In this document: positions 13,112 to 20,552 of the stretch, in pieces
Layout of the letters: each line of letters begins with the position of its first letter
How positions within the stretch are numbered: the stretch's first letter is position 1
IMG/VR virus record: IMGVR_UViG_2711768056_000005
Reading direction: 5' to 3' (one strand)
Length of the DNA: 64,000 nt
DNA from: a virus
Lineage: Duplodnaviria; Heunggongvirae; Uroviricota; Caudoviricetes
Translations under genes and position numbers: made by a program
The notes under the pieces: model-generated
What the model was told of the DNA's origin: nothing
Seen by the model: the letters and a program-made list of their open reading frames with translations, nothing else
Databases searched by the model: none

Positions 13112-13307
13112 GCTTCACCTCGATAGGCTTGATGGTGTCTAACAGCAGTCGGCGGCGCGTATTTTCTGCAAAATGGCGGCGTCCAGTTTCTTTGTGGTAA
13201 AACTCGTTTTTGCCAACGACCCACATCCGCTCTGTTTGGTGCAGTTTTTTTACCTTCGGGCCATCTTTGGTGATCACGGTACCGGTATGGGTTTTTACGA
13301 TTGTCAT
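13104..13307 (-). CDS. Hypothetical protein (67 aa)
   Basis: Coupled ORF; 4-nt overlap with the upstream PP-loop gene. Confidence 0.4.
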   Translation of the reverse strand: MTIVKTHTGTVITKDGPKVKKLHQTERMWVVGKNEFYHKETGRRHFAENTRRRLLLDTIKPIEVKHV

Positions 13308-14182
13308 TCCACTACCTCTTCGAATTTCAACTCCAATTGGTCACCCCAGATTTCACATGATTCGGAACACGAACCAGTATCAAACCGCTTGGCCAGCACC
13401 ATCGCCTGATACAAATTTCTGTAGTCACTGTTGGCATACATTCTGGCAATCCCGTCAAGCGTCAGGTGGCCACGGTACATAACGTCTTTACCTGTTCTGC
13501 GATGACCATCCCTGACGTGTTTGCCTGTAACCAGTTCATTAAAAACCCGCATCAGACCAGGTTCGTCTTTACATGCAAGCCCCAGCTTTTGCGTTGACTT
13601 TTTGATGCAAAAAACACAGTTCCCGAGGTGCTCCGGGATTTGCAAATCAAAAGGTTGTTTTCGCCACCACCGGATAACATCCGACTTATCAAAATCTGAC
13701 AGCTCGGCAAGATACCGGACGCCCGGTTTCGGTTTCAGCCTACGGGGTTCGTCCGCACGAATACCTAGCCATGTGATGTAATTCCCTCGCCCAAAATGGT
13801 CATCGCAATATTTCGTGAAAGGGGTGAGTTTTAGCCTGTCAGTACAGAACGCGCCGCCGATGTATGGCGTACCGTACTTTTTAACCATGTCCATAAACGG
13901 TTTAAGCACCGGCATTCGCGTCTGAATATCCTTTGGTTCCCATTCCGTATAACCATTTGGCTGCCCAAGTTCTGGATTTATATCGACCTGCAACACCGTT
14001 AGCGGTACGTTCCAGAACTTCACAACCTCACGAATAAAGCGATACGTCAGAGGATGTTCACAGCCGGTATCCATAAAAATGAAATGGACGCTAGCGCCAG
14101 CTTTTCGCTGTGCTTCCATCAGATGAACGAGATAAGCTGATGTTCGTCCACCTGAAAAGCTGACGACTTGATGCATACTCAC
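13304..14182 (-). CDS. PP-loop ATP pyrophosphatase / PAPS reductase-like protein (292 aa, GTG start)
   Basis: N-terminal VSFSGGRTSAYL is the SGGxDS-type PP-loop motif; size fits the PAPS-reductase/DndC-like family. Confidence 0.6.
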   Translation of the reverse strand: MSMHQVVSFSGGRTSAYLVHLMEAQRKAGASVHFIFMDTGCEHPLTYRFIREVVKFWNVPLTVLQVDINPELGQPNGYTEWEPKDIQTRMPVLKPFMDMVKKYGTPYIGGAFCTDRLKLTPFTKYCDDHFGRGNYITWLGIRADEPRRLKPKPGVRYLAELSDFDKSDVIRWWRKQPFDLQIPEHLGNCVFCIKKSTQKLGLACKDEPGLMRVFNELVTGKHVRDGHRRTGKDVMYRGHLTLDGIARMYANSDYRNLYQAMVLAKRFDTGSCSESCEIWGDQLELKFEEVVE

Positions 14183-14185
14183 GGT

Positions 14186-14914
14186 TTATTCCTGAATGCG
14201 CTTAAACTCGATTACCCACACCCAGGGATTAGCGTTCCAGCTTTCTTCACCATAGATGGATTCCCACAGGCGCTGGAACGCAACCTTGGCCATTGCGAAA
14301 TCCCCCTTGGGAGTAAGGAATGTTCCCGGGTGATCAGGAAGCAAACTTCCAGCAGGCGGAACGCCCTCATCCCTTGCATCGCATTCGCTGATATCGTTCA
14401 ACCGCTCAACGCGCACGTTGGTAATTTCCAACAGGATGCGTGATGCCCATCGCGGCATGTGAATTGATGGACGCCACCCACCATCAAACTTTTCATTCAC
14501 AGTGTGAGGTTTCCAGTCGGCATCATCGGGTATCGACCATAAACCGTAATCACCAGGCTTTTGCTCACAACTGGCCCGATAAATCCTTGCTGCGTTCTTC
14601 TCATCGCCACGACAAAGGTTGTCGTTCCAGTCCACACTGCAACCATCTTCATTGCCTAATATCGCCCATGTTTCACGAACCCAAATTCGATCGCCGACGA
14701 TACCAAAGGGGCAATTGAAAACACTGCTTACACCATCAGCCCCGTACCACTGAAAACCTGCACCAATTTCCCTAACCATCACTGGTGCTTCTGGACCAAC
14801 TTCCGCAGGCTGATTTTTCATTATCCGCCGCGTCTGCGTTTTCCTTCCTTCGAGGATGGCTCGGACCATCTCATCGTTGAAAATCATGCCGCGCTCTTTC
14901 ACTTCGCCTTTCAT
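14186..14914 (-). CDS. Hypothetical protein (242 aa) with N-terminal MVRAILEGRKTQTRR motif
   Basis: ORF directly upstream of the PP-loop gene; the GRKTQTRR motif recurs in phage proteins of unknown function that neighbour PAPS-reductase-like genes. Confidence 0.5.
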   Translation of the reverse strand: MKGEVKERGMIFNDEMVRAILEGRKTQTRRIMKNQPAEVGPEAPVMVREIGAGFQWYGADGVSSVFNCPFGIVGDRIWVRETWAILGNEDGCSVDWNDNLCRGDEKNAARIYRASCEQKPGDYGLWSIPDDADWKPHTVNEKFDGGWRPSIHMPRWASRILLEITNVRVERLNDISECDARDEGVPPAGSLLPDHPGTFLTPKGDFAMAKVAFQRLWESIYGEESWNANPWVWVIEFKRIQE

Positions 14915-14923
14915 GCATCCCCC

Positions 14924-17953: not shown

Positions 17954-18642
17954 GCTGCACCATCACCTTTCACTTTCATCAATGTCAGGTTTCCGCAAAA
18001 TACGGCACCAGTGTCGATATACTGCTGATTCCAGAATGTCTTCGGGCTTTTCACCGGAGTGTGACCAAAGATAAAACGATCTGCGCCCGAAATTTCGCCA
18101 CCAATATCATCCATCGAATCACTGATACGCTCGCGCGCCCAGACAACGTTGAAAAGCGGCACCTCCTTACCGAATTGATATTCATTATCCGGATAGTCGG
18201 CATGGGCTATAACGATAGTTTCTTGCCCGGTGTTCAACTCAATGATATAGGGCAGACGTCTTACCAGCTCCACCAGCGCCCTGGCTAATATTTCCTGATC
18301 AGTGTCCAACATGAAGAACCATTGTCCACCATTCATTAGCCAGTTATTCACGTTGCCATCAGGACTTAACGCATCGAGCATCAACCGCTCATGGTTCCCC
18401 ATCACTGCCCTGAACCAGGGCATCTGCAATAGTTCCAGACATTCGACATTTTCAGTACCGCGATCGATAAGGTCGCCGACCGATATCAGTAAATCCTGCG
18501 CCGGGTCAAAATCCACACGATGGAGTTCGGACATCAGTCTGGTGTAGCAACCATGCAGATCACCAACAACCCAGACATTCCTGTATTTGGTACCGTCGAT
18601 ACGGTGATAAATTGTGGGTGCCATCATGTATTCTTCAGCCAT
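17950..18642 (-). CDS. ppp: Ser/Thr protein phosphatase, lambda-PPase type (230 aa)
   Basis: Metallophosphatase motifs GDLHG, GDLIDRG and GNHE in canonical order and spacing. Confidence 0.85.
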
Positions 18643-19250
18643 TCTTTAAGAGTCATCTGCGGAATACCTCCCATTTTCCCGCATGAAACAACGTCAATCT
18701 GTTCACGCGCAGACTGGAATAACAAAGGCAGGTGACTTAGATTTTTTGGCGTGCCGCCGGAGTGAACGCGTAGTTCTTGCGTAGCGTCAACGCCCACCAG
18801 AGCTACATGTTTGAATCCGATATGGAAAGCCAGGTTCAGAGCACCATATGCACTATTGCCGCTGGCAATTTCATTCTCATCTTCGCAAAGGCCGAAATGT
18901 CCGGACCAGCGCCATGCCCACCACTCTGGAGAATTCGTATTTTTTGGCTCAGTGCCTCGTTCAGCCACACGACGGAAGCACAGAACGCCGTCTCTGACTT
19001 CACGTTCTTTAACATCGGGTAATGCCATGCAATAACAAACACCACGGCGACGGCGGCCACGACCAACGCGCCGCATATTGTCTGGCGATGGATCAAGTGT
19101 GAAAAAATAAGAAGCGCGGTTAAGCCAGTCGATGGCCCCATTGACCGCTATAATCGGCACTCCGCGCGGCGCAACAAAGTTTGCGGCGCTTGGGCCACTG
19201 CCGACGATAATAACGCGATCACTGCCTCTAAATTTATTCTTGGGAAACAT
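18624..19250 (-). CDS. Rossmann-like protein, paralogue A (208 aa)
   Basis: [10 protein letters not shown]...IIAVNGA...ALVGVD pattern shared with the next ORF; RBS GGAG present. Confidence 0.5.
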
Positions 19251-19810
19251 TGAATTGCACTGCTCCTACTTGCATTCAAAATATGTAAATCTGCGTGTTT
19301 TTTGCGGGTATCCAGGAACTGCTGTTGCCATTTTGAAATAGACACCTGCGTTGGATTCCGTAGGGCTTGAGGATGCGCGCCATGCCAATGAAGGCCGTTT
19401 TGCAGAGAACAGTCATAGCCGACTAATACAACTACTTCAGCCCCTGATTCAGCCGCCAGACTGATAGCCTGCGCGCCGCTATTTACCCCTTCCGCCGGTC
19501 CACAATATCGCCTGTACTCCAACGAAAATGATTTCGCCGCCGCCAGGTTGGCTGTCACTTTGCGGAATCTCCCTCCCGGTATGGTGGATCCGTATTGCTT
19601 CCACCATGACAAATCACCGGCGTATAAGGCATAAATGTCATCGAACATCTGCCAGGAATTGTTAACCGCGATGATTGAACAGCCAGTTTTTTCTATAGCA
19701 GCACAGTCCTCACGAGTGAGTGACGGACCGCTACCGACACAAAAAACAGTCCTAGTTGCCCTGGGTGGTATGTTCATTCTCAGCTGCAAATTCAGCCTCC
19801 AGGCGAGCAT
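19148..19810 (-). CDS. Rossmann-like protein, paralogue B (220 aa); 3' end overlaps paralogue A by 103 nt
   Basis: TVFCVGSGPS...IIAVNNS...VLVGYD colinear with paralogue A. Confidence 0.5.
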   Translation of the reverse strand: MLAWRLNLQLRMNIPPRATRTVFCVGSGPSLTREDCAAIEKTGCSIIAVNNSWQMFDDIYALYAGDLSWWKQYGSTIPGGRFRKVTANLAAAKSFSLEYRRYCGPAEGVNSGAQAISLAAESGAEVVVLVGYDCSLQNGLHWHGAHPQALRNPTQVSISKWQQQFLDTRKKHADLHILNASRSSAIQCFPRINLEAVIALLSSAVAQAPQTLLRRAECRL

Positions 19811-19973
19811 TCATTTCAGCGATTACCGGGTCCACTACAGCATCTGCTTCCTGTTCATTACGCGGCATGATCGATGCCAGCGATTCATAATTAGCCTTGG
19901 ATGACACGATTATTCTCCCGATGTTAATGTGCGCTATATCAAAGAGCACATATGCACTAATTAATTTATTATT

Positions 19974-20552
19974 TCACGCAGCGTACAACCACTTATCACC
20001 GTTCAATACATGCTCAATAGCCTCACCCTTTTTAAGGCTCATGTATTCCAGGATGGCGGTTATCGCTTGTTCTGCACCATACGCAAGAACGACGTAGTAA
20101 CCTTCCTCTCTAAGCCTGCGCATCCAGGCGATCTGCTCTTTCGTCGGGGCTTTACCATTTGGTTCTTTAAGCTCAATTCGCATGCCGTGATAAATACCGC
20201 ATGCTTTATCGAGACTCATGTCCGGATAACCTTTTTTCTGCCCTTCAGCCTTCATTTTCCCGGCGGTTGCTTTTGAACGTTTCCCTCCGTTAGGCGTTGC
20301 ATGCAACAGCTCATAGATGTCAGGGTGCTTGCGTTCGAAGTAATCAAAAATGAAAACCTGCTCGAAGTGCTCGCAATTCCCGTCGCGCAGGTCTGGGTTC
20401 TTTGCCAGTGCTGCAAGTGCCTTCGCATGTGGAGAAACTTCTTTTACCGGCGCAAGCGATAAGAATGGATCCTTTTTGGTTTTTGGCCTGGACCGCCCCT
20501 TATTTCGACGCTCACTAAAAGCCTGAAACTCTTCCTCAGTAAAGCGCAACAT
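19974..20552 (-). CDS. VRR-NUC-like nuclease (192 aa)
   Basis: KGYPDMSLD...RIELKEP fits a PD-(D/E)xK catalytic core of VRR-NUC type. Confidence 0.55.
   Translation of the reverse strand: MLRFTEEEFQAFSERRNKGRSRPKTKKDPFLSLAPVKEVSPHAKALAALAKNPDLRDGNCEHFEQVFIFDYFERKHPDIYELLHATPNGGKRSKATAGKMKAEGQKKGYPDMSLDKACGIYHGMRIELKEPNGKAPTKEQIAWMRRLREEGYYVVLAYGAEQAITAILEYMSLKKGEAIEHVLNGDKWLYAA

Follow-up and report, generated by a model that had tools for sequence, protein, structure and literature searches.

The pmg region of a P1-like phage-plasmid: a mosaic of independent early units and a putative protein-glycosylation cassette

Introduction

In phage lambda, early accessory genes that are not essential are lined up in the nin region, among them those for NinC (itself non-essential) and the NinI phosphatase. 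This nin region is the closest analogue of the region described in this work, taken as a whole: positions 13304-20552 of a 64,000-nucleotide stretch of DNA (hereafter the window, always at its full length) from the IMG/VR virus record IMGVR_UViG_2711768056_000005. These positions hold the pmg accessory region of phage P1, which is well known and without assigned function. Both regions are made of non-essential early accessory genes, but here the ninC-like gene and the NinI-type phosphatase gene (ppp) stand in different operons and are interleaved with the morphogenetic gene pmgR and with a set of genes resembling two other described systems. The first is the virion glycosylation of mycobacteriophages, whose enzymes decorate capsid and tail proteins and are dispensable in the laboratory; the second is the protein glycosylation carried out by Maf flagellin glycosyltransferases.

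P1 is a workhorse of Escherichia coli genetics, and P1-like phage-plasmids often carry resistance genes. The “putative morphogenetic” gene block of P1 has been without a function for twenty years. A sequence-only reading of the window had gathered eight genes of the region, plus a GT-B-like gene co-transcribed with ban (dbn), into a cluster of nucleotide- and phosphate-handling enzymes, and had proposed that they modify nucleic acids or host proteins. In this work the region is interpreted as a mosaic of independent C1-repressed units plus one cassette, pmgO/pmgP/pmgQ/dbn, which would glycosylate proteins, probably those of the virion; we give this interpretation a probability of roughly 0.55. 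Public annotation already held the genes and most of the domain labels (“glycosyltransferase”, “alpha-2,3-sialyltransferase”, “metallophosphoesterase”, “VRR-NUC”, “3'-phosphatase”, “PAPS reductase family”). What is new is that the cluster splits into independent pieces, that pmgO, pmgP, pmgQ and dbn form a conserved and widespread cassette with a putative role in glycosylation, that ppp is an insert in this cassette, and that the contexts of the cassette point to protein acceptors. The gene block would thereby gain a testable job.

Results and discussion

Identity of the region

The window was 100% identical to the E. coli plasmid pZ0117EC0062-2, a 92.8-kb P1-like phage-plasmid. Phage P1 was 98.4% identical to the window over 14220-20552, with the same gene order (pap, pmgS, pmgR, pmgQ, ppp, pmgP, pmgO, pmgN and pmgM) and a match that spanned pmgL through pap; the leftmost 0.9 kb or so (13304-14220) had no counterpart in P1.

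The open reading frames (ORFs) on which the sequence-only reading relied were all present at the positions given and all on the minus strand (Table 1). Its description of the region as C1-controlled also held: a scan of the window with the C1 operator consensus gave 12 matches against 0.43 expected, four of which (15093, 17185, 17234 and 20858) were inside or bordering the region, and the operators were placed at the heads of units. Likewise, the named domains were all there, several of them under curated cut-offs; PAPS_reduct, HAD_PNKP and Metallophos passed clearly, whereas VRR_NUC, Glycos_transf_1 and MptE-like stayed below. Pfam passes, diagnostic motifs, profiles, the structural model of the ASCH-like protein described below and the operator enrichment together confirmed the observation as such. 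The label given to the cluster fitted less well: the domains are real, but four of the nine enzymes are glycosyltransferase-like.

Linkage of pmgO, pmgP, pmgQ and dbn

The genes pmgO, pmgP and pmgQ were contiguous in Citrobacter phage phiNP, E. coli myophage IME392, Xanthomonas jumbo phage Xoo-sp13 and three metagenomic phages (L016, L019 and L023). PmgP was rare in the species-level genome collection (12 loci), and PmgQ was found at most 4.5 kb from it in 11 of 11 informative genome loci, despite shuffled order and strand; PmgQ also accompanied PmgP in all eight non-P1 phage records. Among 27 divergent PmgQ loci from IMG/VR, 18 had an adjoining MptE-like gene, three of them as fusions of the Q and O/P types. 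Fused genes were seen for PmgO-PmgP (L016:8001-9131) and for PmgQ with an MptE-like protein (L090:7989-9254, L094:1962-3239 and L102:5200-6474).

The fourth gene, dbn, is detached in P1, where the baseplate/tail gene block (genes 26 to 5) lies between the cassette's two halves and dbn is located about 6 kb off, behind ban. A Dbn homologue (47.5% identity, E 1e-105) was found exactly between the P and Q genes in IME392 and EP_H11, that is, in the slot which in P1 is occupied by ppp; further homologues were found between O-like and Q-like genes in L090 (31% identity) and 3 kb from a Q-P pair in L115 (37%). These positions in or near O-P-Q blocks support the earlier suggestion that the ban-linked GT-B gene belongs with the cluster. 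The gene ppp was present in 52 of 52 close P1-like IMG/VR loci, but the pmgP/pmgQ junction was without it in five lineages (Cronobacter phage JK004, L022, L076, L017 and phiNP), which rules it out as a core member of the cassette.

Other genes found in cassettes encoded TylF-type, FkbM-type and Methyltransf_23/24 methyltransferases, a PIG-L deacetylase and a GT-A enzyme of the Nucleotid_trans family; judged by their domains, almost all of the variable cassette genes are predicted carbohydrate-tailoring enzymes. In the P1-like metagenomic phage L017 the same gene string included a KdsB (CMP-Kdo synthetase; TIGR00466, 270 bits against a cut-off of 155). The hosts named for PmgO homologues were all Gram-negative.

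Protein families of the cassette

PmgQ matched no model in Pfam or NCBIfam. A profile made from four PmgQ sequences matched GT8 structures in the PDB (AgtA 1.8e-5, glycogenin 3e-4, GlyE 4.7e-3), and the motif D79-L-D81 was invariant in the alignment. PmgQ shares the DxD motif and profile similarity with the retaining GT8 glycosyltransferases (glycogenin, Skp1 AgtA, GlyE and the lipopolysaccharide enzymes WaaJ/WaaO), but is shorter (about 230 residues), is reached by none of the Pfam models, and is fused to an MptE-like domain in three loci and to a TylF methyltransferase in Xoo-sp13.

PmgO and PmgP matched MptE-like (PF01973) with 23.4 and 20.8 bits respectively, both under the gathering cut-off of 34.6, and a precomputed PF01973 match was carried by many PmgO homologues; PmgP had no match in NCBIfam. 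The two proteins had 13 invariant columns in an eight-sequence alignment and each matched the PHROGs of the other, so they are distant paralogues, as the description of two paralogous Rossmann-like proteins had anticipated. The N-terminal G-x-G-P-S-L motif aligned with the sialyltransferases Cst-I and Cst-II, and the fold of the family was of the Maf/sialyltransferase type. In comparison with Magnetospirillum Maf (PDB 5mu5; 632 residues, 16% identity), PmgO and PmgP, with about 200 residues, correspond to the catalytic core alone, and they are found in phages, not in flagellar loci, as paired O and P proteins firmly tied to a GT8 enzyme. A relationship of PmgP with WaaZ was considered and rejected, the only match being of 20 bits (cut-off 200) on the PmgP half of the fusion protein P0051.

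Dbn matched Glycos_transf_1 with 25.0 bits (1.5e-5), just under the cut-off of 26.4, and its IME392 homologue (annotated as a 285-aa CDS) with 26.5 bits, just above it. The C-terminal EX7E motif (E248-SLGLTVL-E256) was invariant in three homologues, and the names in use were “glycosyltransferase family 4 protein” (RefSeq) and “Glt” (phage P7).

Genomic contexts and proposed function of the cassette

Cassettes followed immediately on capsid, portal or head-completion genes in D3, L024, L079, L083, L104, L112 and one further contig, adjoined large tail proteins in CcrColossus and Xoo-sp13, and occupied the gap between lysis and terminase genes in phiNP (between the lysis genes and terS), L016 and L023. 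The tail/host-specificity protein beside the Xoo-sp13 cassette (1439 residues, L012:6668-10987) had long Pro/Thr/Ser-rich linkers; linkers of this kind are classic substrates of O-glycosylation.

Outside phages, three enterobacterial chromosomes (L109:1-16591, L110 and L111) encoded PmgO, PmgP and PmgQ homologues (43-63% identity) among four Big_1 Ig-like proteins, one of them an inverse autotransporter of 1178 residues, and phage genes were absent from the surroundings. The island may serve to glycosylate adhesins.

In the proposed mechanism, PmgO and PmgP, enzymes of the Maf/sialyltransferase fold, would transfer an acidic sugar from its CMP-activated form; a candidate donor is CMP-Kdo, on account of the kdsB gene of L017, a single lineage, and of the Gram-negative hosts of PmgO homologues. 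PmgQ would act as a retaining GT8-type transferase with its DxD motif and Dbn as a GT4-type transferase, and during lytic growth the four enzymes together would assemble a short glycan in the cytoplasm. The likeliest acceptor would be a protein: proteins of the particle for the phage cassettes, and Ig-like adhesins for the few copies in bacteria. Protein glycosylation is favoured because the cassettes are found near virion genes and in the adhesin island, and because the best structural relatives of these enzymes (Maf, glycogenin, AgtA and GlyE) all act in protein glycosylation. The remaining genes (ppp, pap, pmgM, the ninC orthologue and the ASCH-like gene) would have separate accessory functions and merely share the neighbourhood, the pmg genes being gained, lost and swapped independently, much like those of the lambda nin region. 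Of the two kinds of chemistry proposed earlier, protein modification is plausible for the four-gene subset, probably with the proteins of the phage itself and not those of the host as targets.

If confirmed, this would be a variant of phage virion glycosylation and of Maf-type protein glycosylation. Like the mycobacteriophage systems, it combines phage-encoded glycosyltransferases and methyltransferases that are dispensable for plaques; it differs in its Gram-negative hosts, in its Maf/sialyltransferase-fold core and in a possible Kdo-type donor, and is known so far from genes alone. Particle glycosylation, shown until now mainly for mycobacteriophages, would then extend to phages of Gram-negative bacteria, with a bearing on the immune recognition and stability of therapeutic phages, and the chromosomal copies would suggest that enterobacteria may have a new system for glycosylating adhesins. 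A broader and clearly more tentative proposal is that P1 and many unrelated Gram-negative phages O-glycosylate their own particle proteins by means of PmgO/PmgP, PmgQ and an optional GT4 enzyme, methyltransferase or deacetylase, with host CMP-Kdo perhaps as donor, and that some enterobacteria use the same triad on inverse-autotransporter adhesins; it might then be a widespread, undescribed system.

Several observations weigh against virion glycosylation. Glycans are never mentioned in the P1 virion proteome paper or in two recent P1 cryo-electron microscopy studies, and a literature search found nothing that connects P1 Dbn or the Pmg proteins with glycosylation. In P1 the promoter of the operon is early and C1-controlled, not late. 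The scores of PmgO, PmgP and Dbn in the window itself were below the Pfam gathering cut-offs, a search of the PDB with the Dbn profile found no solved structure, the resemblance to WaaZ is faint (20 bits for a cut-off of 200), and the glycosylation chemistry of all these proteins is a prediction from their families. The kdsB link comes from a single lineage (L017 and L018), and the slot concerned has unrelated cargo elsewhere. Finally, knockouts and CRISPRi knockdowns of pmgO, pmgP, pmgQ and dbn in P1 had no phenotype in plaques or antirestriction (PMC9024508, PMC10695390). This last result does not refute virion glycosylation, because that of mycobacteriophages is likewise dispensable in the laboratory.

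Independent accessory genes

The mosaic character of the region was clearest at its left end. Downstream of the operator Op88, the P1 genes pmgT/U/V were swapped for the ASCH-like gene, the ninC orthologue and an Ea22-type module, a block common to Stx phages; ninC and the genes downstream were approximately 93-95% shared with the early-left region of these phages. The stretch downstream of ninC (11988-13307, minus strand) contained an Ead/Ea22-like gene and two small ORFs common to the Stx-phage early-left operon, which shows exchange between lambdoid phages and P1-type plasmids.

The protein encoded at 13304-14182 shared 80% identity with lambda Nin290 across 98% of its length, matched PAPS_reduct (PF01507; 2.8e-9, 37.7 bits against a cut-off of 22.5) and had the PP-loop motif SGGRTS. 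Its best match in the PADLOC defence-system library was SspD (1.9e-13), followed by DndC and, at a great distance, by CysH-type reductases. SspD is the PP-loop component of Ssp DNA phosphorothioation, and the match offers a clue to what lambda NinC does, a question of long standing. The other proteins of the region had no match in the defence-system library, apart from coiled-coil noise on PmgS.

The adjacent protein, noted earlier for its GRKTQTRR motif, had no match in Pfam (the ASCH model included) or NCBIfam; a profile search of the PDB returned nothing and a single-sequence search gave a chance-level match only. Its AlphaFold2 model (pLDDT 65) was confident in the core and disordered in an insertion (residues 83-157), and the top eight PDB structures found with this model by Foldseek were all ASCH proteins (among them 3s9x, YqfB, PH0355 and EF3133; probability 0.90-1.00, E of 6e-3 or higher). 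The GRKTQTRR motif corresponds to the N-terminal ASCH signature GxKxxxxR, and close homologues are named “ASCH domain-containing protein” by NCBI. The predicted core fold and this motif are as in known ASCH proteins (the E. coli ac4C amidohydrolase YqfB, ZmASCH), but the window protein differs from them by the insertion of about 75 residues, by the missing Pfam ASCH match, and by forming its own large phage-specific family (phrog_874, at least 8000 relatives).

The ASCH-like gene and ninC were rejected as a conserved pair: six unrelated phages with the ASCH-like gene had no PAPS reductase within 3 kb, and Stx phages carry NinC without it. Among 52 P1-like IMG/VR loci, the ASCH-like gene was present in 29 and ninC in nine. 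In a Salinibacter phage, a PmgM-like VRR-NUC gene (35% identity; L009:4734-5033) was located about 1 kb downstream of an ASCH-like gene, which may be a coincidence.

Pap matched HAD_PNKP (1.2e-11, 45.4 bits against a cut-off of 27.6) and had a DIDGT motif; PF25109 was present in all Pap homologues, one of which was fused to a kinase. Pap shares the HAD_PNKP match and the DxDxT motif with the phosphatase domain of the T4 polynucleotide kinase-phosphatase, but lacks the kinase domain, and its substrate is a prediction from this similarity. The slot between pmgS and pap was empty in the window, in P1 and in L022, and filled in other relatives; it is a cargo hotspot. In L017 (11494-13892) it held a genuine kdsB, which overlapped the pap homologue by 4 bp, and two ORFs; in L021, a P1 relative, it held a gene for an Rv2179c-like 3'-5' exoribonuclease (8135-8683) followed by a 101-codon ORF. 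A role of Pap as a Kdo-8-phosphate-type sugar phosphatase tied to kdsB was not supported: the two genes are adjacent in L017 and L018 only, with other cargo elsewhere, and the Pap homologues are all HAD_PNKP proteins.

Ppp matched Metallophos above the cut-off (1e-15, 59.1 bits), with the motifs GDLHG, GDLIDRG and GNHE, and PRK11439 under the equivalog cut-off (5.5e-82, 275 bits against 326), with similarity to PrpA/PphA; the P1 annotation gives it 64% identity with the lambda protein phosphatase (NinI). PmgM gave a borderline match to VRR_NUC (3.1e-4, 21.2 bits against a cut-off of 23.8), had a PD...ELK motif and matched phrog_5702 (5.9e-27).

Given the separate inheritance of ninC, the ASCH-like gene, ppp and the contents of the pap slot, the nine genes do not make up one pathway. 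The apparent enzyme cluster is mostly a coincidence of location, which calls for caution in reading phage accessory regions as pathways.

Alternative interpretations

A serious alternative, which we nevertheless consider unlikely, is a remodelling of the host envelope (for instance the lipopolysaccharide core) by the four transferases during lytic growth, which would mask the receptor and reduce adsorption to debris or block superinfection. It is serious because core biosynthesis uses the same kinds of enzymes: the GT8 transferases WaaO/WaaJ, the GT4 transferase WaaG and the Kdo III transferase WaaZ; the core is also the receptor of P1. The faint WaaZ match in P0051, the kdsB of L017, a GT9 gene in the CcrColossus cassette and the exclusively Gram-negative hosts all fit this explanation. 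However, the genes are C1-repressed and so not expressed in lysogens, the state in which masking a receptor normally pays off, one lytic cycle would leave little time to replace existing lipopolysaccharide, the WaaZ match was far under its cut-off, and the cassettes were found within capsid/tail operons and in the adhesin island.

A second explanation, about equally doubtful and independent of the glycosylation cassette, concerns Pap and Ppp, possibly with PmgM, which might form a nucleic-acid end-healing set directed against RNA- or tRNA-cleaving defences of the host. Pap belongs to the PNKP phosphatase family, with its kinase-fused homologue, Ppp matched bacterial Pnkp (TIGR04075, 9.2e-11) and an RNA-ligase PHROG, and the exoribonuclease of L021 is encoded two genes upstream of pap. 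In addition, the lambda phosphatase has 2',3'-cyclic phosphodiesterase activity. Nonetheless, the Pfam, PHROG and NCBIfam scans of the region revealed no kinase or ligase, pap and ppp are in different transcription units, the lambda enzyme to which Ppp is 64% identical by the P1 annotation is a protein phosphatase, and knockouts had no phenotype in K-12 (PMC9024508, PMC10695390).

For PmgO and PmgP themselves, the second-best role, which fits the fold and is nevertheless quite improbable, is that of MptE/thiamine-pyrophosphokinase-like pyrophosphokinases making an activated small molecule used by the linked transferases. The Pfam match is to the MptE-like model and the best E-value of the PDB profile search was to the HPPK 8sd5, but the alignment of the G-x-G-P-S-L motif was with sialyltransferases, and the constant partners are glycosyltransferases and sugar methyltransferases.

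The least probable interpretation, which builds on the sequence-only reading, makes the whole cluster a single pathway for the hypermodification of phage DNA or RNA, as an escape from host nucleases. Against it, ordinary restriction enzymes cut P1 DNA routinely. The location of all the genes on one strand under C1 control, the similarity of NinC to a DNA-phosphorothioation protein, the capacity of ASCH folds to bind modified nucleosides (with YqfB among the structure matches) and the existence of phage glycosyltransferases acting on DNA are outweighed by the independent inheritance of the components, by the failure of the Pfam, PHROG, NCBIfam and PADLOC scans of the region's proteins to find a hydroxymethylase, a kinase or a TET/JBP, DpdA-type or other base-precursor enzyme, by the cassette contexts (head/tail gene clusters and the adhesin island, not DNA-metabolism genes), and by single-gene pmg/upf knockouts of P1, which changed neither plaques nor antirestriction (PMC9024508, PMC10695390).

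Transcription units and small open reading frames

The region holds at least four C1-operator-controlled transcription units (Table 1). The Op83 site, with four mismatches to the consensus, was missed by the operator scan and is recognisable solely through transfer of the P1 annotation. Because of the terminator-like hairpin between pmgS and pap, transcription from the pmgR-pmgS promoter may not simply continue into pap. Base 26742 was common to the stop codon of ban and the start codon of dbn.

Table 1. Features of the pmg region and of the ban-dbn operon, with positions in the window.
Feature	Position	Strand	Basis
Lambda NinC orthologue, PAPS-reductase-family PP-loop protein	13304..14182	-	Pfam PAPS_reduct; identity to lambda Nin290
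Putative ASCH-fold protein (GRKTQTRR protein) with insertion of ~75 residues	14186..14914	-	phrog_874; AlphaFold2/Foldseek
C1 operator, equivalent of P1 Op88/OpmgT	15093..15109	-	One mismatch to consensus; agrees with P1 annotation
pap, stand-alone HAD phosphatase of polynucleotide kinase-phosphatase (PNKP) type	15109..15615	-	Pfam HAD_PNKP
Terminator-like hairpin between pmgS stop and pap start	15640..15668	-	11-bp stem with 6 GC pairs, then T run
pmgS, coiled-coil protein	15688..16950	-	phrog_1660 (2.9e-195); otherwise weak coiled-coil (SMC-type) matches only
pmgR	16952..17170	-	Position as in P1; phenotype reported in PMC9024508
C1 operator pair, equivalents of P1 Op86b and Op86a	17185..17250	.	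Matches at 17185-17201 (+) and 17234-17250 (-); P1 annotation
pmgQ, GT8-like GT-A glycosyltransferase (putative) with DxD motif	17252..17953	-	Profile matches; phrog_1962 “glycosyltransferase”
ppp, lambda NinI-type Ser/Thr phosphatase, optional insert at the pmgP/pmgQ junction	17950..18642	-	Metallophos and PRK11439
pmgP, MptE/Maf-like protein, distant pmgO paralogue	18624..19250	-	Sub-threshold MptE-like match; alignment with PmgO family
pmgO, Maf/sialyltransferase-fold protein	19148..19810	-	Sub-threshold MptE-like match; fold comparison
pmgN, small ORF heading the pmgN-O-P-ppp-Q unit	19752..19907	-	P1 annotation transfer; ORF present
Position of P1 operator Op83 (Oppp)	19951..19967	+	Transferred from P1 annotation
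pmgM, VRR-NUC (PD-ExK) nuclease-like protein	19974..20552	-	VRR_NUC, phrog_5702, motif
pmgL, small Cys-rich protein	20555..20800	-	ORF and P1 annotation
C1 operator, equivalent of P1 Op82/O26	20858..20874	+	Two mismatches to consensus; P1 annotation
dbn, GT4-like GT-B glycosyltransferase (putative), detached fourth cassette member	25744..26742	-	Glycos_transf_1, EX7E, IME392/EP_H11 homologues
ban, DnaB-like helicase, translationally coupled to dbn	26742..28112	-	Annotated as dnaB

Between the Op88-type operator and the ASCH-like gene, a hydrophobic 28-codon ORF (MNTAFKIIMAAIYFWLFSITFGGIVAHG) was found at 14925-15010 on the minus strand, and may encode a small membrane peptide.

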